DNA of 42,091 bases from Candidatus Gastranaerophilales bacterium (GTDB lineage: Bacteria > Cyanobacteriota > Vampirovibrionia > Gastranaerophilales > Gastranaerophilaceae), in contig CALUYR010000309.1 in assembly GCA_944325045.1 (NCBI GenBank), forward strand, positions 1 through 42,091, in the 5' to 3' direction. The position numbers and the translations under genes were made by a program. Below, one piece after another: positions 1 to 42,091 of the stretch. The notes under the pieces are model-generated. The model had not been told where the DNA came from and did not search any database. It was given only the letters and a program-made list of their open reading frames with translations. Every line of letters begins with the position of its first letter. The first letter of the stretch is position 1.

Positions 1-77
1 ATGTCGGCGCGCGCGGGTGGTGCCGTCCTTTACGGAGTAAACAATAAATAAGGTTATAAAGAGGACAAGTACGACTT
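1..77. repeat. Terminal direct repeat (left copy), identical to 42015-42091; assembly overlap of a circular or circularly permuted genome
   Basis: Compared base by base: atgtcggcgcgcgcgggtgg...gaggacaagtacgactt occurs at both ends. The left copy holds the last 47 nt of the tail-fibre ORF, including its stop at 45-47. Confidence 0.95.
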
Positions 78-3255: not shown

Positions 3256-3501
3256 GTGGAGATAGAGGTTATTAGAGAATACATACCGTTTATAGCTATA
3301 TGCGTATTGTTATATCTACTACAAATGAATATATTTGTTAGAACGGAAAAGCTTGAAAAAGTACACAGAGAGATTCTTGATGAGGTAGAAAAAAAGTACG
3401 CAACGAAAGAAACAAGTGAACATTTTAGAACTCAAATATCCGATATTCAAATTAAAATTGATAAAATCTACGATAAGTTAATAGGTGAAAAGCATGAATA
3501 A
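3256..3501 (+). CDS. Small membrane protein, putative holin
   Basis: GTG start. One hydrophobic segment (IPFIAICVLLYLLQMNIFV) is followed by a charged helix. It sits immediately upstream of, and overlaps, the amidase gene. Confidence 0.5.
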   Translation: MEIEVIREYIPFIAICVLLYLLQMNIFVRTEKLEKVHREILDEVEKKYATKETSEHFRTQISDIQIKIDKIYDKLIGEKHE

Positions 3502-3976
3502 AATCATAATTCACTGGACGGCTGGGGCATATAAACCGAATGCTACTGATCTGGAACATTATCATTTTTTAATTGACGGCGAAGGGCAAAAGCATGAAGG
3601 AAAATATAGGCCCGAAGATAACGAAAATTGTAATGACGGAAAGTATGCCGCCCATACAGGCGGTGGGAATACAGGAGCAATAGGCGTAAGTATGTGCGCT
3701 ATGGCAGGTTTTGTTTCTCAAAATAATTGCGGTAAATATCCTATAACTCCGGTGCAATTAGAAGCTTGCTTTAAGTTATGCGCGGAACTATCAAAAAAAT
3801 ATGATATTCCGGTTGAAAATATTATGACGCATTATGAGTTTGGGCTTAATCACCCTAAAACTGCAAGTCATGGGAAAATAGATATTACTTATCTACCGCC
3901 ATACCCGGAAGTTAAAAAGAACGAAGTAGGCGGATTTATACGAAATAAAATACGTTGGTATTTGTTGAAAATATAA
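3494..3976 (+). CDS. N-acetylmuramoyl-L-alanine amidase (amidase_2/PGRP type, T7-lysozyme-sized endolysin)
   Basis: IIIHWTAG...HYHFLIDGEGQ...AAHTGGGNTGAIGVS...MTHYEF follows the amidase_2 pattern. RBS aggtga lies before ATG 3494 (alternative GTG at 3485). No cell-wall-binding domain is present. Confidence 0.8.
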   Translation: MNKIIIHWTAGAYKPNATDLEHYHFLIDGEGQKHEGKYRPEDNENCNDGKYAAHTGGGNTGAIGVSMCAMAGFVSQNNCGKYPITPVQLEACFKLCAELSKKYDIPVENIMTHYEFGLNHPKTASHGKIDITYLPPYPEVKKNEVGGFIRNKIRWYLLKI

Positions 3977-14837: not shown

Positions 14838-15964
14838 TTAATATAAGCCCTCCAAATTTATACCGGACAGAATATGTGCTATAACATCAACAGTCCAGCC
14901 GTTTCCTAACATCTTATATCTCTGCGTATTGCTTACCCCTTCCGTGTAACAGTCCGGTACAGTTTGTAAGCGTTCGCATTCAAGGGGCGTAAGTTTACGA
15001 ATGCAATAATGCCCGTCCGGTAAGTTTACTTTGTAAAGCCCTGTTTTAGCACCTAGTCCCCCCCCCCATTAGCATTTAGAGATACCGACTTGCCAATAAC
15101 AGAATAAACCCTATTCCCTTGCGAACTGCTGCCATTCACATTACCTATTTTAATAGGTGCGCAGAGCATACTATCAGTATTTACCGTAGTTATGCTATTT
15201 GCTTTTCCATCTCTCTTTATTTCAAGCCGTTTCCCAAATCCGTTTCTTGTTCTCATAGCACAAGGTATAGCAACATTTGTCATTGTCATACTTCTTACGC
15301 CTTTATACATAGACGCCCCTATACTCCTAGCCTTATTGCTTAATCCTCTTACTCCGTCAAAACTATATTGGCTCGAAAGATTATCACTAATATTTATCCC
15401 CGTTTCTATAATATCCTTTAAAAAAATTTTGCAGTCATTAGGCTGGGTAACCCAAATATTAGTCCAGTAGTAACGTTTACGTTGTTGAGCTGACAATAAT
15501 GCAGAATTTATCATAATCGGTTCAACGCCTAAAATACTACTTATGGTATCTCTATCCTCATTACGCATACTAGCAACATTTTCGAGCAAAAAATATTTAG
15601 GTTTCACCTTTTCGAGAATCTCAACAAACCGCCAAAACAAACCGCTTCTCTCACCTTCTAAACCTTTACGGTTATGTTTTGCTATAGATAAGTCTTGACA
15701 TGGGCTTCCGCCCATTACTAAGTCTATATCTTCCCATGAAAAGCCTTCAATAAATTCCCAAAACTGAAAATTATTAACATCACCCAGATTAATAGCTTTA
15801 GGATAGTTTTTATCCGCTATTTTTATAGCGTACTTATCAATCTCACTTGCAAAATACTTATCGTATCCAATACCCGCCCTCTCCAGTGCGATAGCGCCGC
15901 ACCTCATACCGTCAAAAAGGCTTAAAACATTTCTAATCTTCACTCTTACAAACCTCCGAAGCAT
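14838..15964 (-). pseudogene. DNA (cytosine-5) methyltransferase interrupted by a frameshift in a G10 tract
   Basis: Frame 1 (15964-15053) holds motifs I (LFDGMRCG), IV (GGSPCQDLS), VI (LLENV) and VIII (QQRKRYYW), then ends NANGGGD*. A shifted frame (15056-14838) holds motif IX (RKLTPLECERLQTVPDCYT) and motif X (YKMLGNGWTVDVIAHIL). Confidence 0.9.
15058..15067 (-). repeat. Homopolymer: C10 on the plus strand, G10 in the coding sense; site of the methyltransferase frameshift
   Basis: Counted directly: ccc at 15058-15060 plus ccccccc at 15061-15067. Confidence 0.95.
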
Positions 15965-16544
15965 ATCTCTTCTTAATAAAATACAAACGTGCTAAGGCGT
16001 TCCATGCGACATGCGCTGCGTGATATAATCCGCTCTCCAGATCTATAGCCCGGTTTTGTTCTGCTAATAAATGACGCATTAAAGCATTGGAGTATCTCTC
16101 TTCTCCTCCAAGAACATAACGCCAATTACCTTTAGAATACTTATCAGCACCAAACGCCCATACTTTAGCAACTTCTTCGAGCGGTTCGGCAAAATCTTGA
16201 ATCATCTCACACATGCGGGGTTTACCTTTATCATATTTTATCCCTTCAACCGGTGTCATTGGTCCTGTTTCTGTTTCTGGCTCTGATTCCAGTTCAAAGT
16301 TATAGAGTTCAACATGGGGTAATAGGTACCCCGGAAAAGTTCTTACAAAATATTTCACAATATCATCAATATCGAAAATGTCTCCCCGAAAAGTATATCT
16401 CATAGGCTCTTTATTACTTAATGATACTTCGATTGAGGTGCAACCGAATGTTGTATTAAGGTCTATTCGTACTGATACTTCGCCAAAATAAAGTCTTAAT
16501 CTCTCGCAAAGTCTTTTAACAAAATCCTCATTTACTCTGTCCAT
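15933..16544 (-). CDS. Protein with a dATP/dGTP diphosphohydrolase-like (MazG-related, PF18909-like) C-terminal domain
   Basis: KYDKGKPRMCEMI...VAKVWAFGADKYSKGNWRY...ALMRHLLAE...ESGLYHAAHVAWNALARLY matches the remembered domain signature. Confidence 0.6.
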   Translation of the reverse strand: MDRVNEDFVKRLCERLRLYFGEVSVRIDLNTTFGCTSIEVSLSNKEPMRYTFRGDIFDIDDIVKYFVRTFPGYLLPHVELYNFELESEPETETGPMTPVEGIKYDKGKPRMCEMIQDFAEPLEEVAKVWAFGADKYSKGNWRYVLGGEERYSNALMRHLLAEQNRAIDLESGLYHAAHVAWNALARLYFIKKRYASEVCKSED

Positions 16545-16549
16545 TTCTC

Positions 16550-17074
16550 TTATCCTCCTATAAATGCTTTTGTACTAAACCAGTTATAATAATTCCAGCT
16601 ATATTGAATCTCCATAACTCTTTTAGAAAATATAGCTATCATGATTTTCTGACTGGGTTTCGGTGTCTCGTTTTCTGCCCCCGGAATAATAAAACCTATC
16701 TTGCCGGGAAGAAAAGCAAAAAGACAATGCGGATTTTTGATTATTAGTTCTTGATAATAATTAGTTTCCAGCCTATCAGCCGGTAAAACCATATAAACCT
16801 CTTCCGCATTCCCTTCTTGTATCTCGTTGTACGCCTTGCGTAACCAATTGCGCGTATACTTAAAAGGCGGGTTAAGAAAACACTTACCTCGCCAGCCTAT
16901 TGTTAATCCGTCATACAAACCATTGAACGCATGAAAGTCCGCCGGAATATTAGCCTCACTGCAACATACGTCCATACTAAAAAATGCCGTCTGTGCAATA
17001 TTGAGTAAACTATCGACAATCCATGACGGTGTCATATAATCATCACGCACAGAATCATAAGCCTTTTGTGCCAT
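16550..17074 (-). CDS. Phage Dam-type DNA N6-adenine methyltransferase
   Basis: The sequences DDYMTPSWIV and catalytic FLNPPFKY are seen. Size and layout fit the PF05869 family. Confidence 0.8.
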   Translation of the reverse strand: MAQKAYDSVRDDYMTPSWIVDSLLNIAQTAFFSMDVCCSEANIPADFHAFNGLYDGLTIGWRGKCFLNPPFKYTRNWLRKAYNEIQEGNAEEVYMVLPADRLETNYYQELIIKNPHCLFAFLPGKIGFIIPGAENETPKPSQKIMIAIFSKRVMEIQYSWNYYNWFSTKAFIGG

Positions 17075-24867: not shown

Positions 24868-26586
24868 GTGGCAAGTTCAAGAATTGACGCTATTTTACAT
24901 AGATTTAAAACTTTAAAATCACGTAAACAGACACTTATACCGTTATATGAACTTATAAGTGAATATGTCTATAATCGTAAGTATGACGGCTACGGCATAC
25001 CTAATGCGGGGATTTTTGCAGATGAAGACATTTATGACAATACTGCACAACGTGCGAATGGCATTATGGCTAACGTTATGGTTAATAACATTTGGCCTAA
25101 CGGTCCTAGGACTTTTTCTGTCGGGCGTACTTGGGATACACCGGACACAGAAGAAATAAAAAAGTATTTTGAATTTGTAAATCAGCAGATGTATTCTGTA
25201 ATGGATAACACCCGCGCAGGGCTTCAAACCGCATTTGATGAATATATGCTTGATCAAGGGGCTTATGGTATTAGTGGTGTTTATGTCGAAGAGAAAGAAA
25301 CGGATCCGGTTGTACCTATTAGATATAAGTCTTGGGGGATTAAGGATATGCTTGTTGATGAAGGCCCGGACGGGTTAATCGATACTATTTTTTCTGAAAA
25401 AGAGATGTCTATTAGAAACGCAGTCCGTGTATACGGTTTAGAAAAATTGCCTTCGTTTGCAAGAGAACTCTATAAAAATGGGGAAGTTGAAAAGCCTTTA
25501 AAAATTCTTCATGTTATTGAACCGCGTTTAGAAAGAGATCCGAAGAAAAAAGGTGCTAAGGATATGCCTATAGCTTCTATCCATATAGAACTAAGTACAC
25601 GTAAAATATTGAAAGAAAGCGGTTTAGAAGAAATGCCGGTGTTTGTCGGCAGATTTTCAAAAGTTCCCGGAGAGATTTACGGTCGTTCCCCTGCCATGGT
25701 TGCTATGGCGGATATTCTGGAAATTAATGCAGTAAGGGAAGCTATATCTATTGCGACTGAAAAACAATTAGATCCTCCATTAGCTGTGTATGATGACGGT
25801 GCATTAGGGGGCGGAGATATTGACACTTCTGCCGGCGGTGTAACTGTTTTCTCTGTAACTGGTCGATTGAATACCGGAAAGCCAATTGAGCCTATATATA
25901 CAGTGGGTGAGCTGCAAAGTTCATACACTCATATTGATACGTTGAAGGAAACTATTAATAATCATTTTTATCTTGATAGGCTACTTGACTTCAATAATGA
26001 AACACGTATGACACTTGGCGAAGCACAGCTAAGAAATGCCCTCCGCGGTCAATCGCTCGGAGCTTTTTATGCAAGACAAGAGAATGAAGTTGTTACGCCG
26101 GTTATTGAAAGAACGTTTAATATTCTATTGAAACGTGGCAGATTAGGCGTTGTATCGGGATCAGAAGAAGAAATCGAGTTAATATCAAGGGGTATTCAGC
26201 CGGTATACATTCCGGACGTTCTTGTACAAAAAATGTTAAACGGTGACGATATTTATGAGATTACGTATTTGTCACCTGCAAAACGTACAATGCAATCAGA
26301 AGAGTTACGCGGCATTATTGAAACTGCTAATTTTGCAGTTGGTGTGGCACCAGCTAATGCAGAAATACTCGATAATATTGATTTTGATAAATTGATAAGC
26401 AGAGTAGCTAAATTAAGCGGTGCGCCAATGGAATTGATAAAAGACAGCGTAACTGTTAAGGGTATTAGAGACGCAAGAGCACAACAGCAACAGCAATTAA
26501 TGCAATTAGAACAGGCAAGGCAACAGAGTGAAATAGGGCGTAATGTGGCCCAGATGAATGCTATGCAAGGTAAGGAGGCCGCTTAA
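24868..26586 (+). CDS. Portal (head-to-tail connector) protein
   Basis: 572 aa, lying between TerL and the scaffold/capsid genes. GTG start after RBS taggggg. Confidence 0.8.
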   Translation: MASSRIDAILHRFKTLKSRKQTLIPLYELISEYVYNRKYDGYGIPNAGIFADEDIYDNTAQRANGIMANVMVNNIWPNGPRTFSVGRTWDTPDTEEIKKYFEFVNQQMYSVMDNTRAGLQTAFDEYMLDQGAYGISGVYVEEKETDPVVPIRYKSWGIKDMLVDEGPDGLIDTIFSEKEMSIRNAVRVYGLEKLPSFARELYKNGEVEKPLKILHVIEPRLERDPKKKGAKDMPIASIHIELSTRKILKESGLEEMPVFVGRFSKVPGEIYGRSPAMVAMADILEINAVREAISIATEKQLDPPLAVYDDGALGGGDIDTSAGGVTVFSVTGRLNTGKPIEPIYTVGELQSSYTHIDTLKETINNHFYLDRLLDFNNETRMTLGEAQLRNALRGQSLGAFYARQENEVVTPVIERTFNILLKRGRLGVVSGSEEEIELISRGIQPVYIPDVLVQKMLNGDDIYEITYLSPAKRTMQSEELRGIIETANFAVGVAPANAEILDNIDFDKLISRVAKLSGAPMELIKDSVTVKGIRDARAQQQQQLMQLEQARQQSEIGRNVAQMNAMQGKEAA

Positions 26587-26888
26587 TGGCAAAAGAAAAA
26601 ACGCAAGAGACTACGAAAGAAAACCAGTATAAAAAAGAATTACAGAAACTGCGAAATGCTTTTAACAATGTTGCTAAAACAAGTTCCGGAAAAGTGGTAT
26701 TCAGATACTTAATGAAGGAATGCGGATTTAACGAGCCCGCTGTAGTTGCGAGTTGTGCAACAGGGGAGATAAACCCTTTAGGCTCAATTTATAACGAAGC
26801 ACGTAGAGACGTATACATGAGGATACGAAAATTTTTAAGTAAAGAGAATATTATATCAATTGAATTTAAGGAGGACGAAGATGAGTAA
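26586..26888 (+). CDS. Small head-morphogenesis-associated protein (Bbp19-like, from memory)
   Basis: 100-aa ORF coupled to the portal stop (taatg). It sits in the conserved position after the portal in podovirus modules. Confidence 0.5.
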   Translation: MAKEKTQETTKENQYKKELQKLRNAFNNVAKTSSGKVVFRYLMKECGFNEPAVVASCATGEINPLGSIYNEARRDVYMRIRKFLSKENIISIEFKEDEDE

Positions 26889-30227: not shown

Positions 30228-32820
30228 TGAAGTTGTACGGAATTTTGTAGGCGGTGAACTATGCCCTTCTGTATCTGCAAGAAGTGATATTAAAGTATAT
30301 TCTAATGGCTGTGAAAGATTAGAAAATTTCTTGCTGGAAACTACAGGACCTGTAAAATATCGTACCGGTACTGTGTTTGTAAACCCTACCCGTAGAAATG
30401 CTTTAGCAAGATTCATACCGTTTCAGTTTTCTGATTCTCAATCCTACCTAATTGAATGTACACCGGGATATTTTAGGTTTTATAAGGATAACGGTATTAT
30501 CGTTGATTCCAGAGAAAAAACGATAACCGGAATAACGGCAGCGTCTCCGGCCGTTGTTACTTCTAATTCTCATGGTTTTGTTAATGATGAGATTGTTTAT
30601 ATCAGCGGCATAAAGGGTACTATTTCAGAGGTTATAACGGACGGATATTATAAAGTTAAATCCGTTCAAACAAATACTTTTGCTTTATATTCTCTTGACG
30701 ATACCGCAATTGATACAACTGATAAGGAGTATAAATCTGACGGAAGTATAGAGAAAACGATAACCGGAATAACAGCAGCGTCTCCGGCTGTCGTTACGAT
30801 TAAAAATCACGGTTTAGAAAACGAAGACGAGGTCTTCCTTAATGATGTTGTTGGTATGGAGGTGCTTAATAGCAAATCATTTATAGTTAAAAACGTTACT
30901 ACCGATACCTTTGAACTGTATAACGATGAAGACGAAGCTATCGATACTACAAGTCTTTTATATATTTCAGGCGGACGTATTTCTAAGATAGTTGAAATAG
31001 AGACACCGTATAAAGATGTTGAGGGTTTAACCGATGAAGAGATTATGTCGTATTTACATAAAATCCAATACACTCAAAATACAGATACGGCGTATATCGT
31101 TCATAATCAATACGAGCCTCGTAAATTGACACGTTCTTCTCATACGGATTGGTCCTTTGCGGAATTTGAGAGGACAAGCGACTACATGACGGAAAAAGGA
31201 AAATACCCTAGCTCCGTAGCTTTTGACGGAGCCGGGCGTATTATATATGCGGGTTTTGAAAATGAGCCGGATTTAATCCTTATGAGCAGAGGCCCGGACG
31301 AGAAGGACGGCACACCTCGCTATGATGACTTTACTACAGGAACATTAGCAAATGACGCTATTAAGATGTACCTTGCTTCAATGAACGGTAAGAGTACCAT
31401 TATTAAATGGTTAGCAGCTAATAACAGATATTTTATCGTAGGTACAGAAGGCGGGCTTTTAAGAATAGTAAGTTCGGACGGTTCAGATACTGCGTTTAGT
31501 GCGGAATCCGTACCAATGGCGCGCCCGATTGATTCTTCCGGCTGTGCTAATATAAGACCTGTTCCTAAAGGGAATTTGCTTTTTTATTTGCAGAAAGAGG
31601 GCTTAATATTACGCGGTCTTGAATATGATCTTGTTTATGATTCCTATAAATCTGTCGACAAGAATTTAGTATCTGATAGGATTACTTCCGGCGGTTGCCG
31701 TGAGATTGTTTTCCAACAAGGACGTCCGGATATTTTCTGGATCCCTAAAAAGAACGGACAGTTAATAGGTTTAACATATCATGAAACCGAAGACGTTGCA
31801 GGTTGGCATAGAACCATTTTAGGTGGTTCCGGTAAAGTTATAAGCGCCGGAATAATGCCAAGAGCTAATAACTATGATCAACTATGGTTAGTTGTTGAAA
31901 GAGTTATAAACGGTAAAACTAAGAGATACGTAGAGTATGTATCTGATTATATTGAATTCGTTACCGAAGAAGATTTTTACACAGATGAGCTAACGAAAAA
32001 TGAGGACAAAGAACGGTATCAGAATGATTTATACGAAAGACAAAAATTAGAAAAGCACCTTGATTGCTGCATGAGTTATGACGGCAGTCAATTAGGGGTA
32101 TCTTTAAATGCTACTATTACTATTCAAAAGATTTCAAGATCAGAAAATAACCTAGCTTATTTTAATTCGGACGTGGATATATTTAATGATAATGATCTTG
32201 ATAGGCAGATCTGGCGATTGCATAAAGAGGGTATTGGTTCCGGCCGTGCGAAAATTGTTGAGTTTATTAACGCAAAGCAAGTAAAGTGCAAGATTTTAAA
32301 AGAGTTTGATATAGATACAATGGCACCGGGAATATGGACGCTTACAACGGCAAACATTAGCGGTTTAGAACATTTAGAAGGTGAGACCGTTTCAGTTGTT
32401 GCTGACGGGGCAGTACACCCGGATTGCGTTGTAGAAAACGGGGCTATTGAACTTAGGACACAGGCCGATGTTATCCATATCGGTTATGGCTATCGAGGAA
32501 TGATAAAAACAATGAATTTGAATGTAGGGGGAACTACAGGAAGTGCACAGAATAAAGCACGGAATGTGTATAAGGTTGTATTTGAGTTTTTAAATTCTTT
32601 GGGCGTAAAGTTTGGGACAGGTTTGTATAACTTAAATAAATTAGATTTTAGGGATATAGACAGTAAAACGAATAGACCTACAGCGCTATTCTCCGGTGAA
32701 AAATCACAGGTTTATGATGATAAGACACAAAAAAGAAAACATGTCTATGTTGTACAAGATAGCCCTTTACCTTGTACTATTCAGGCACTCGATATTTATA
32801 TGGAGGTTGTAGATGACTAA
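30214..32820 (+). CDS. Large tail tubular/nozzle (stabilisation-type) protein with two tandem ~79-aa insert domains
   Basis: RBS gaggagga precedes ATG 30214. The N-terminus is MPLVNEVVRNFVGGEL...YRTGT. A duplicated EKTITGITAASPAVVT... domain is present. Confidence 0.6.
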   Translation: MPLVNEVVRNFVGGELCPSVSARSDIKVYSNGCERLENFLLETTGPVKYRTGTVFVNPTRRNALARFIPFQFSDSQSYLIECTPGYFRFYKDNGIIVDSREKTITGITAASPAVVTSNSHGFVNDEIVYISGIKGTISEVITDGYYKVKSVQTNTFALYSLDDTAIDTTDKEYKSDGSIEKTITGITAASPAVVTIKNHGLENEDEVFLNDVVGMEVLNSKSFIVKNVTTDTFELYNDEDEAIDTTSLLYISGGRISKIVEIETPYKDVEGLTDEEIMSYLHKIQYTQNTDTAYIVHNQYEPRKLTRSSHTDWSFAEFERTSDYMTEKGKYPSSVAFDGAGRIIYAGFENEPDLILMSRGPDEKDGTPRYDDFTTGTLANDAIKMYLASMNGKSTIIKWLAANNRYFIVGTEGGLLRIVSSDGSDTAFSAESVPMARPIDSSGCANIRPVPKGNLLFYLQKEGLILRGLEYDLVYDSYKSVDKNLVSDRITSGGCREIVFQQGRPDIFWIPKKNGQLIGLTYHETEDVAGWHRTILGGSGKVISAGIMPRANNYDQLWLVVERVINGKTKRYVEYVSDYIEFVTEEDFYTDELTKNEDKERYQNDLYERQKLEKHLDCCMSYDGSQLGVSLNATITIQKISRSENNLAYFNSDVDIFNDNDLDRQIWRLHKEGIGSGRAKIVEFINAKQVKCKILKEFDIDTMAPGIWTLTTANISGLEHLEGETVSVVADGAVHPDCVVENGAIELRTQADVIHIGYGYRGMIKTMNLNVGGTTGSAQNKARNVYKVVFEFLNSLGVKFGTGLYNLNKLDFRDIDSKTNRPTALFSGEKSQVYDDKTQKRKHVYVVQDSPLPCTIQALDIYMEVVDD
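30514..30797 (+). repeat. Direct repeat within the tail gene: ~47-nt cores at 30514-30560 and 30751-30797, 237 nt apart
   Basis: gaaaaaacgataaccggaataacggcagcgtctccggccgttgttac versus gagaaaacgataaccggaataacagcagcgtctccggctgtcgttac, with 4 mismatches. Confidence 0.9.
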
Positions 32821-40393: not shown

Positions 40394-42061
40394 ATGGCTG
40401 TATGGAATGACGAAAACAAACTTTTAGTAGATTGCAGCGAAGTAAAGGACATACCTTTTGAGTTTAAGATTTTTAATGAAAAGGATTTGATTGTTTCCTT
40501 GATAAATCAAGAAACTTCGGAAGAAACACTATTAACGCTGCATACTGATTATGAAATTGAAATAAGCAGGATTGAGGACGGCGGAACATTAAAGCTCAAT
40601 GAGGTTCACCCCGGATATAACTGTTATGCTTACAGAGAAATTCCGCTTATTCAACCGGAAGAAATCCCAACAGAAGGGAATTTTCCGGAAGAAACCATTG
40701 AGAATGCTTTTGATAGAGGCGTAATGATAAGTCAGCAGTTGCAGGAGCAAATAGACAGATGTTTAAAGATTCCGGGCTTTTCATCTATTTCGGAGATTAA
40801 CTTTGAAGAGCCGCAAGACGGAAAAGCTTTAATATACGATATTGAGGGAAACACTGCTACTATCAAGAACTCTCAATATAATCCGGACGAGGTTGTTGAA
40901 GAATGTCAAGCACAAGTTGCTTTAGCAGAAGCACAGGCGGATAGATCCGAATTAAATGCAGAAGCCGCCGCGGCTATCACAGGACAATTCCCGGCGTCCG
41001 TAAGCCTTACAACTTGGGCGAGATTAAATAACGGCGAGATTTTTAACTTACCGTTTGACAGTGTAAAGGCTGATGTTAATAGATTTATTGAGTATGCAGA
41101 CAAACGTAAACTTAAAATTTTGAAAAACACTTTTATCAGACTGGATATAACAACTGAAACAGATAGCGGCAGTACAAGTGAATCGCGTTTATTTTGTGTC
41201 TGGGAAGATCAAACGCTAAACGTAGAGGATTTGCTCGATACAGGAGAAACGCTTACAAACGGTAAGGATTATAGTATATTCTTAGTTCCTGATGATACAG
41301 CAACAAATAGCATAGGAATTAAGGTATCTCTGAATAAAACAGCGCCTACAGGGTATAGTGCATTGAATACTAGACGTATAGGCGGATTCCATACGCTATG
41401 TGTTGACGCCGGAACAATTGAGGGTCACGATTTAAGCGGTTGGCTTGCCGGTGATATTTTACCTTTATCAGTATGGACGTTATGGCATAGACCTATTTGC
41501 AGCCCTTCCGGTATGCGTTATGTTCCGGAATTAGACGGCTGGAAAACTATTTACATGCAATCCGGAACGGGTACAAATACCGTTTTTGAATACGGTGCTA
41601 CGCATACCAGATCACGTGATTACTGGGGGCATGAGTTTGATGTAGGCATGGTCGGAATGGAACTTATATCAAGTTTAGCATTTACCGTATCCGCACAAGG
41701 AGTTGAACCGTTAAAAGCTATTCAAGGAAAAGCGGAAAGTTATTGTTTAACTGCCGGTGGTCATGTTAATGAAAGCGGACGCCGTATATTATCAAACGGC
41801 GGTGATGAAGATGATGTCGGTGTATTATGGCAAGTAACAAGTCATATTGCGGCTACAGGCGGCTCAAACTGGGCGCAAGCCGGATCATTTAATGATACGA
41901 AAGCATATCAATATGGCTCTTGTATGCGTTTGATGGTTGGCGGGTCTTGGGCTGACTCCGGCTACACTGGTCCTTCGTGTCGTGGTGGTAGCCCGGCTCT
42001 GTATCTGCACACGCATGTCGGCGCGCGCGGGTGGTGCCGTCCTTTACGGAGTAAACAATAA
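40394..42061 (+). CDS. Tail fibre / receptor-binding protein, DGR target (Mtd-like, C-type-lectin-fold C-terminus)
   Basis: It is the last late gene. The C-terminus ...VGGSWADSGYTGPSCRGGSPALYLHTHVGARGWCRPL is encoded by the VR. Confidence 0.85.
   Translation: MAVWNDENKLLVDCSEVKDIPFEFKIFNEKDLIVSLINQETSEETLLTLHTDYEIEISRIEDGGTLKLNEVHPGYNCYAYREIPLIQPEEIPTEGNFPEETIENAFDRGVMISQQLQEQIDRCLKIPGFSSISEINFEEPQDGKALIYDIEGNTATIKNSQYNPDEVVEECQAQVALAEAQADRSELNAEAAAAITGQFPASVSLTTWARLNNGEIFNLPFDSVKADVNRFIEYADKRKLKILKNTFIRLDITTETDSGSTSESRLFCVWEDQTLNVEDLLDTGETLTNGKDYSIFLVPDDTATNSIGIKVSLNKTAPTGYSALNTRRIGGFHTLCVDAGTIEGHDLSGWLAGDILPLSVWTLWHRPICSPSGMRYVPELDGWKTIYMQSGTGTNTVFEYGATHTRSRDYWGHEFDVGMVGMELISSLAFTVSAQGVEPLKAIQGKAESYCLTAGGHVNESGRRILSNGGDEDDVGVLWQVTSHIAATGGSNWAQAGSFNDTKAYQYGSCMRLMVGGSWADSGYTGPSCRGGSPALYLHTHVGARGWCRPLRSKQ
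41926..42034 (+). repeat. DGR variable repeat (VR), followed by an IMH-like flank
   Basis: Aligns to TR 110-221 and differs only at TR adenine positions plus one codon deletion. It ends in gtcggcgcgcgcGggtgg. Homology to the TR is lost from 42035 onward. Confidence 0.92.
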
Positions 42062-42091
42062 ATAAGGTTATAAAGAGGACAAGTACGACTT
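42015..42091. repeat. Terminal direct repeat (right copy), identical to 1-77
   Basis: Direct comparison. Confidence 0.95.

Follow-up and report, generated by a model that had tools for sequence, protein, structure and literature searches.

A BPP-1-like diversity-generating retroelement and its hypervariable Mtd-type tail-fibre target in a phage genome from gut metagenomes

The 3' end of a tail-fibre gene on contig CALUYR010000309.1 (NCBI GenBank assembly GCA_944325045.1, from Candidatus Gastranaerophilales bacterium) is, with high confidence, the variable repeat (VR) of a diversity-generating retroelement (DGR) that is active in a BPP-1-like podophage of animal guts. The whole contig of 42,091 nucleotides (nt) was analysed and is referred to as the window; features of the element are given by their window coordinates and all lie on the forward strand. 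The element is clearly an active, Mtd-type and BPP-1-related phage DGR of accessory-less architecture. The reading is carried by a repeat pair whose differences fall on adenines, a template repeat (TR) that stays constant while the VRs diversify, a DGR-type reverse transcriptase (RT), the homology and fold of the target protein, and fixed differences at the boundary of the two repeats.

The VR spans 109 nt (41926–42034) and codes for residues 511–547 of the open reading frame (ORF) 40394–42061, whose product of 555 amino acids (aa) ends in ...MRLMVGGSWADSGYTGPSCRGGSPALYLHTHVGARGWCRPLRSKQ, with nine further codons following the VR before the stop. An initial annotation, made from the letters alone, had placed a hypervariable C-terminus of a receptor-binding protein in the last ~45 residues of this ORF, and the coordinates as well as the terminal peptide that it quoted hold. 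A direct repeat of 112 nt, containing 24 adenines and nine AAY codons, lies at 110–221. Between the two copies there are 13 substitutions and one 3-nt gap, with 13 of 13 substitutions at adenines of the 110–221 copy (24 A in 112 nt; P ~7e-11 if positions were random), which identifies this copy as the TR and 41926–42034 as the VR. In frame, the TR reads GRL-I-VGG-N-W-NN-SGYTGPSCR-N-G-NN-PAL-N-L-N-T-N-VGARRW, the nine AAY codons supplying its asparagines.

The apparent distance of the TR from the VR is due to the circularity of the contig. Positions 1–77 (forward strand) are identical to 42015–42091, and this 77-nt terminal overlap indicates a real genome of ~42,014 bp, in which the TR sits, across the circle junction, 75 nt downstream of the stop codon of the 555-aa ORF. 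Since the feature spans the contig ends, with the end of the VR duplicated in the overlap, the repeat pair might be thought an assembly artefact of the circularised junction. That reading is vanishingly improbable: the same VR, 75 nt, TR and RT layout is found internally in the independent contigs L001, L004, L089, L090 and L091, assembled from other samples, which refutes it.

The adenine specificity extends beyond the window. Over seven independent VR/TR pairs seen as DNA (the window, L001, L004, L089, L090, L091 and L092), 77 of 78 substitutions are located at TR adenines, the sole remaining change being T to G in an ATA codon (giving AGG) with adenines on both sides. The change from ATA to AGG recurs in L091 and L092, at VR position 9, equivalent to window position 41934 and alignment column 514.

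Hypervariability was assessed in a protein cluster at 90% identity, comprising 18 members from NCBI, ENA, JGI and Logan assemblies, of which 15, all at least 95% identical and from different metagenomes, were aligned. These 15 proteins carry 15 different VR peptides, in agreement with the hypervariable C-terminus proposed initially, and variable columns make up 18 of 37 in the VR as opposed to 28 of 519 elsewhere (Fisher P = 6e-12). Between 5 and 10 residues occur at every AAY-coded position, and the scaffold stays fixed. At the DNA level, the IMG/VR contig L001 is 99.2% identical to the window over 4 kb and shares an identical TR, but of 33 differing alignment columns, 15 lie in the stretch from 41933 to the VR end. 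L091 likewise has this TR, and the VRs of all three differ. In L091 the 5' part of the VR retains many unmutated AAY codons and looks as if it had recently been copied from the TR.

The VR of the window is one codon shorter than its template, the TR reading CGT AAT GGT AAT AAC CCG where the VR has CGT GGT GGT AGC CCG, with the deletion site at ~41983–41991 in the VR against 167–178 in the TR. The other 14 listed members of the cluster are 556 aa in length with a full-length VR, compared to 555 aa for the window protein. The loss could have arisen from RT slippage in the AAT/AAC run or from an assembly effect in a mixed population, and the next homing event would restore the missing codon. Together with the failure to find two BPP-1 features discussed below, the accessory protein Avd and a cruciform, this deletion could be taken as a sign of decay, with old VR/TR differences in a relic DGR and with differences between genomes generated by recombination among strains. 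Such a relic is very improbable in view of the 15 distinct VRs in proteins at least 95% identical, the identical TR in genomes 99.2% identical, the 77 of 78 substitutions at TR adenines, the intact RT ORF and catalytic motifs, and the L091 VR, which with its many unmutated AAY codons resembles a fresh TR copy.

The 555-aa target (40394–42061) is a tail-fibre or receptor-binding protein composed of a fibre-anchor domain, an Mtd-like body and a C-type-lectin tip, as seen with Pfam, PHROG, hhalign and Foldseek, and by both sequence and fold it is a true Mtd homologue. Pfam PF21916 (mtd_2nd, 'Mtd second domain') covers residues 272–361 with E = 6e-17 and 62.4 bits against a cut-off of 24.6, a phmmer search of the PDB returns Mtd at E = 3e-6, and the PHROG matches of the protein are to tail-protein families; there is no FGE-sulfatase Pfam match in the protein. 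A profile of the 62-sequence family aligns by hhalign with Mtd residues 70–378 (probability 99.55%, E = 1.8e-23), through the C-terminus and including the VR. The AlphaFold2 model has a predicted local distance difference test score (pLDDT) mostly of 85–97 from residue ~220 to the end. In a Foldseek search of the PDB with this model, five Mtd variants rank first (1yu4, E = 1e-18, Mtd-normalised TM 0.68, 403 aligned columns), followed by the C-type-lectin-like FGE/EgtB (E = 3e-4) and the DGR variable protein TaqVP (5vf4, E = 2e-3). The suggestion that the protein is a C-type-lectin-fold DGR target is thus borne out by fold and by sequence profile alike.

The correspondence with Mtd includes the variable positions themselves. 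The AAY-coded residues of the target (518, 520, 521, 531–533, 537, 539 and 541) coincide in the profile alignment with residues 344, 346, 347, 357, 359, 360, 364, 366 and 368 of Mtd, and these nine Mtd residues are AAC-coded in the BPP-1 TR, i.e., they are the variable positions of Mtd. In Mtd the variable residues form a solvent-exposed receptor-binding surface (PMC5758913, citing crystal structures), and by analogy the variable residues of the 555-aa protein would contact the host receptor. The invariant scaffold interleaved with variable positions that the initial annotation described is indeed fixed; its 'x' in VGARxW, listed there as variable, is a constant Gly (7/7 DNA pairs, 15/15 proteins).

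The N-terminal domain of the target (residues ~18–157, 40445–40864) resembles the fibre anchors of T7 gp17, BPP-1 Bbp9 and Dpo31. Dpo31 is matched in the PDB at E = 2.8e-9, Bbp9 shows 33% identity (E = 2e-17), and Foldseek returns the T7 gp17 and Carin-1 fibres. The gene ends the structural module, which comprises portal, capsid and tail proteins and a 1658-aa protein, and this position combined with the anchor likeness gives good support to its designation as a receptor-binding tail-fibre protein.

At the 3' end of the VR the two repeats part in a manner comparable to the initiation of mutagenic homing (IMH) element of BPP-1. There, VR and TR share an identical G/C-only element of 14 bp, which is followed by 21 bp with five mismatches, and the boundary of marker transfer maps inside the G/C element (PMC3240598). 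In the window a stretch gtcggcgcgcgcGggtgg (42017–42034), initially described as G/C-only, is G/C-rich but includes two T, the strict G/C-only run being the 13 nt of 42019–42031, CGGCGCGCGCGGG, which code G-A-R-G within VGARGWCR. The BPP-1 (GC)14, CGGGGCGCGCGGCG, codes G-A-R-G in FGARGVCD, so that the two runs occupy an equivalent position in homologous proteins and the window run is the positional counterpart of (GC)14; as the initial annotation stated, Mtd of BPP-1 ends in a GARGVC-type motif. Within the corresponding TR run lies an adenine, A216 (codon AGG, Arg), opposite G42029 of the VR, and this position is G (GGG) in 7/7 VRs seen as DNA. Gly546 is invariant in 15/15 proteins, Arg (AGG) never being seen at this residue, while some VRs keep the residue encoded by the template (Asn, Thr or Tyr) at its other adenines. 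A216 is therefore a fixed VR/TR difference of the IMH* type and not a variable site, and since it is always G while other template states survive, the transfer of information seems to end between TR 201 and TR 216, which fits the BPP-1 marker boundary within the G/C element.

After GGTGG the VR continues with TGCCGTCCTT (42035–42044), a candidate distal part of the IMH, and the TR with ATACGTAATT (222–231); 5 of 10 positions match and there is no similarity beyond, consistent with the divergence of flanks noted initially. In comparison to BPP-1, the arrangement thus consists of a 13-nt VR run, an A inside the TR run and a partial match of ~10 nt thereafter. In 17 diverse loci of Mtd-type DGRs, whose RTs share down to ~37% identity, ATAYG invariably comes after the TR, and AGCY, or TGCC in the lineage of the window, invariably after the VR; the VR flank never follows a TR, nor the TR flank a VR. 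Comparison with BPP-1 and with these loci gives good support to an IMH/IMH* arrangement at the VR boundary, as had been proposed, although its function in homing is deduced from the likeness.

Several observations weigh against the interpretation of the element as an active DGR of the BPP-1 type. The non-adenine T-to-G change is recurrent in L091 and L092, with Arg at that position in 3/15 proteins. The G/C run is not identical in TR and VR owing to A216, a difference of one base not seen in BPP-1, and the partly matching flank or IMH tail is about 10 nt long compared to 21 in BPP-1. A GC-rich inverted repeat with a GRNA loop is absent after the VR in the window and its closest relatives, and none of about 40 ORFs is matched by Pfam to Avd (PF05635), so that the window differs from BPP-1 on both counts. 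Lastly, the VR flank and Gly546 may be conserved owing to the protein constraint GARGW(C/S)RP and not to a DNA signal.

Taken to its full extent, the last point holds that the G/C run and VR flank are conserved solely as coding sequence for the C-terminus of the lectin fold, with no IMH signal present, and that directionality comes from elsewhere, e.g., from a spacer RNA attached to the TR only. The GARG motif also closes the fold in Mtd, the VR flank lies within coding sequence, and the invariance of Gly546 in 15/15 proteins is explicable by selection alone. Yet the TR, which is non-coding, keeps the same G/C run, the TR and VR flanks are never interchanged across the 17 loci, template states survive at other TR adenines while Arg is absent from residue 546, and the homologous position in BPP-1 is the experimentally mapped IMH (PMC3240598). 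Protein constraint alone is accordingly regarded as an unlikely explanation, though one that retains some weight, and the IMH/IMH* reading of the boundary is preferred.

In BPP-1, a GC-rich hairpin or cruciform with a 7–10-bp stem and a 4-nt GRNA loop is found 4–34 bp downstream of the VR and is needed for efficient homing (PMC3240598). The window has a weak 4-bp hairpin at 42037–42049 (ccgt/acgg, 42037–42040 / 42046–42049), which folds at -3.2 kcal/mol with z = +0.33 relative to shuffles, i.e., no better than chance, is not kept in L002, L004, L006 and L008, and is judged non-functional. Apart from a GCGC palindrome inside the VR, there are no inverted repeats of at least 6 bp downstream of the VR, and no GC-rich inverted repeat occurs between VR and TR. 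This agrees with the initial statement that only a weak hairpin and no strong cruciform follows; no longer GC-rich stem was found. A VR cruciform was consequently rejected, the DNA folding no better than shuffles and having no conserved stem. The G/C run and the VR flank could also pair as CGGC...GCCG; this potential pairing is seen again in relatives, but reaches significance in L002 only.

Avd is essential in BPP-1 but is found in ~74% of DGRs and is hence not universal. A tblastn search with BPP-1 Avd gave E values of 0.7 or more, i.e., no match, and the 75-nt gap between VR and TR is too short for a gene, so no avd lies there. Homing in this element would need neither Avd nor a cruciform. 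Wu et al. (2018) counted 75 DGRs of Architecture A (TR-RT with no accessory gene) among the 372 that they surveyed, and proposed Avd-independent homing (PMC5758913). The window shares with this class a target, TR and RT on one strand, with avd, HRDC, MSL and CH1 genes not recognised. In view of this earlier description, the absence of Avd and of a cruciform is notable but not new.

The DGR RT core of 359 aa is encoded at 356–1432 and is recognised by RVT_1 (E = 1e-18) and phrog_1423 (E = 5e-82), and it is 30.5% identical to BPP-1 Brt along its full length (E = 4e-44). Its motifs are intact, with IGNLLSQ, of the DGR-type [I/L/V]GxxxSQ, at residue 199 and YMDD at residue 231. The TR (110–221) is separated from the RT ORF (356–1753) by a spacer of 134 nt (222–355). 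Directly 3' of the TR, at 232–247, this spacer contains a 6-bp hairpin, GCGGCT-AGTA-AGCCGC, taken as part of the DGR RNA spacer, in which the letters of the stem differ among relatives while the pairing is kept, as in GCAGCA-GAAA-TGCTGC (L002/L007), GCAGC-AAACA-GCTGC (L008) and GGGG-TTTAT-CCCC (L006). The hairpin is followed by a conserved GGACGGCTGGAC. At 261–348 the spacer matches Rfam RT-14 (RF02921) end to end on the right strand, including the long 3' hairpin with its UAGUAG...CGAA internal motif, at 30.4 bits in the window and 36.6–39.4 bits at the same place in four relatives, all five scores being below the gathering threshold of 48.1 bits. The match suggests a distant relative of RT-14, and the region is probably a structured DGR RNA spacer that primes and positions the RT.

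A working model may be proposed in which the TR (110–221) and the structured spacer (222–355) would be transcribed together, after which the RT (356–1432) would copy the TR to cDNA, faithfully at C, G and U and with misincorporation opposite adenines. The cDNA would then replace the VR (41926–42034) at the 3' end of the tail-fibre gene, randomising about 13 codons (nine AAY together with ATA, TAC, ACT and ACG). With 23 transferable adenines, the theoretical repertoire is 7e13 DNA variants and about 1.2e13 peptides (~1e13), and no stop codon is reachable from AAY codons by adenine change. The varied residues would be displayed on the ligand-binding face of the Mtd-homologous C-type-lectin fold, while the scaffold GGxW, SGY(T/A)GPSCR, PAL and VGARGW would remain fixed. 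Transfer would be one-way and end inside the G/C run (42019–42031), with G42029 and TGCCGTCCTT marking the VR side and A216 and ATACGTAATT the TR side, matching IMH/IMH* of BPP-1.

The RT ORF has no stop before an acidic unit of 106 aa (1433–1753; isoelectric point 4.7; MRGFPKY...DRFVW...EDxNARLFRMGYT), which is fused in frame to the RT and possesses its own conserved ribosome-binding site and ATG, the nucleotide-conserved AAAGGAGGT-N5-ATG preceding it. The same in-frame fusion is present in L002, L004, L006 and L008, while in L009 the unit is a separate ORF. Homologues accompany about 55 of 85 Mtd-homologue loci, and in Bartonella loci that are RT-less a homologue lies directly downstream of the mtd-like gene. 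The AlphaFold2 model of the unit is confident (pLDDT 87); there were no matches in Pfam, PHROG or NCBIfam and no fold match in the PDB, and BFVD gave one uncharacterised protein. Homology to BPP-1 Bbp4 was considered but finds no support, hhalign giving a probability of 5% over 13 columns. The unit is a conserved neighbour of Mtd-like genes, also at loci that lack an RT. A fibre partner or assembly factor is more likely than a DGR accessory. It is quite improbable, but conceivable, that the element is a minimal BPP-1-related DGR that homes without Avd or cruciform and whose RT is translated as a fusion with the 106-aa unit as a possible accessory factor. If this were true, the unit would replace Avd or couple diversification to fibre assembly, constituting a new DGR architecture.

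Overall, the closest known system is that of BPP-1, whose Mtd (PDB 1YU0–1YU4, 2IOU) is homologous to the window target. In both, the VR occupies the last ~45 residues with the pattern GGxWxx...xGxx...x.x.x-GARG-x-C and variable codons at the same aligned positions, the TR contains 23–24 adenines mostly in AAY codons, and a GARG-coding G/C run at the VR 3' end precedes the TR/VR divergence. The RT shares IGxxxSQ and YMDD with Brt. Besides the boundary and cruciform differences given above, the cassette differs in that BPP-1 has mtd-avd-TR-brt while in the window there is no avd and the TR follows the target stop after 75 nt. Furthermore, a Bbp9-type anchor and Mtd are fused in a single 555-aa protein in the window compared to two genes in BPP-1, the RT ORF extends in frame into the 106-aa unit, and the source is gut metagenomes, with a low G+C of 38%. 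TvpA (Treponema denticola) and TaqVP (Thermus aquaticus) share the general fold class and a C-terminal VR; Foldseek matches to this FGE-type subclass are far weaker than to Mtd, and the window protein is a phage tail fibre, unlike a bacterial surface lipoprotein. Among the 372 DGRs surveyed by Wu et al. (2018), Mtd-type targets were rare, numbering 12 (PMC5758913).

The element is a natural and well-documented relative of the BPP-1/Mtd prototype that comes from gut metagenomes and shows signs of activity at the population level. As it is evidently active with neither Avd nor a VR cruciform recognised, it offers a compact system in which to test what mutagenic homing minimally requires, and may be of use in engineering small DGR cassettes. 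The donor and recipient are set apart by one fixed base (A216 vs G42029) and a 10-nt flank, which makes the IMH question directly testable. Current understanding of DGRs is unchanged by it, both Avd-less TR-RT cassettes and Mtd-type phage targets having been catalogued already (PMC5758913).

The remainder of the genome has BPP-1-like traits, with a size of ~42 kb and with structural, DGR and lysis modules arranged as in BPP-1 (locus L086), running from a large internal protein through fibre/Mtd, TR and RT to lysis genes, an amidase endolysin gene at 3485–3976 coming after the DGR. Structural genes include a T7-like portal (Head-tail_con), a Phage_capsid_2 capsid, a Bbp19-like protein (26586–26888) and the Bbp9-like fibre anchor, and the replication module contains DNA pol A, DUF2800/PD-(D/E)XK, an SNF2 helicase and Prim-Pol/VapE. 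A DNA-modification cluster on the reverse strand (15053–17074) encodes a C-5 cytosine methylase, a protein with a dATP/dGTP diphosphohydrolase N-terminal domain and a Dam-like N6-adenine methylase. The dGTP_diPhyd_N domain raised the idea of a Z-genome (2-aminoadenine), which was dropped, no PurZ-like gene having been found.

Relatives of the target gene are located on metagenome-assembled genome (MAG) contigs of Vampirovibrio, Gastranaerophilales and Melainabacteria (L008, L019, L022, L049 and L080; protein P0060), one of them of 219 kb, which hints at a non-photosynthetic cyanobacterial gut host for the phage group; against such a host, other near relatives are binned with Bacteroidales or Elusimicrobia. 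A blastn search with the target gene gave zero matches among 50,697 phage records. In protein mode, the N-terminal anchor alone matched BPP-1-like and T7-like fibres, and the Mtd part matched one archaeal-virus tail protein. Pattern scans with the VR core and the TR–spacer junction returned just three related contigs from the viral collection and one human-gut metagenome contig. Bartonella genomes carry multiple copies of Mtd-like genes, 35–45% identical over the C-terminal half and usually accompanied by the 106-aa partner gene; in the fetched flanks of the Bartonella loci (many among L011–L085) neither an RT nor an A-biased repeat pair was detected. Finally, a 78-nt direct repeat on the forward strand (30513–30590 / 30750–30827, 79% identity, 237 nt apart) lies within the gene of an 892-aa tail protein and overlaps a repeated E1_FCCH-like or major-tail-like domain, and is thus probably an internal domain duplication.

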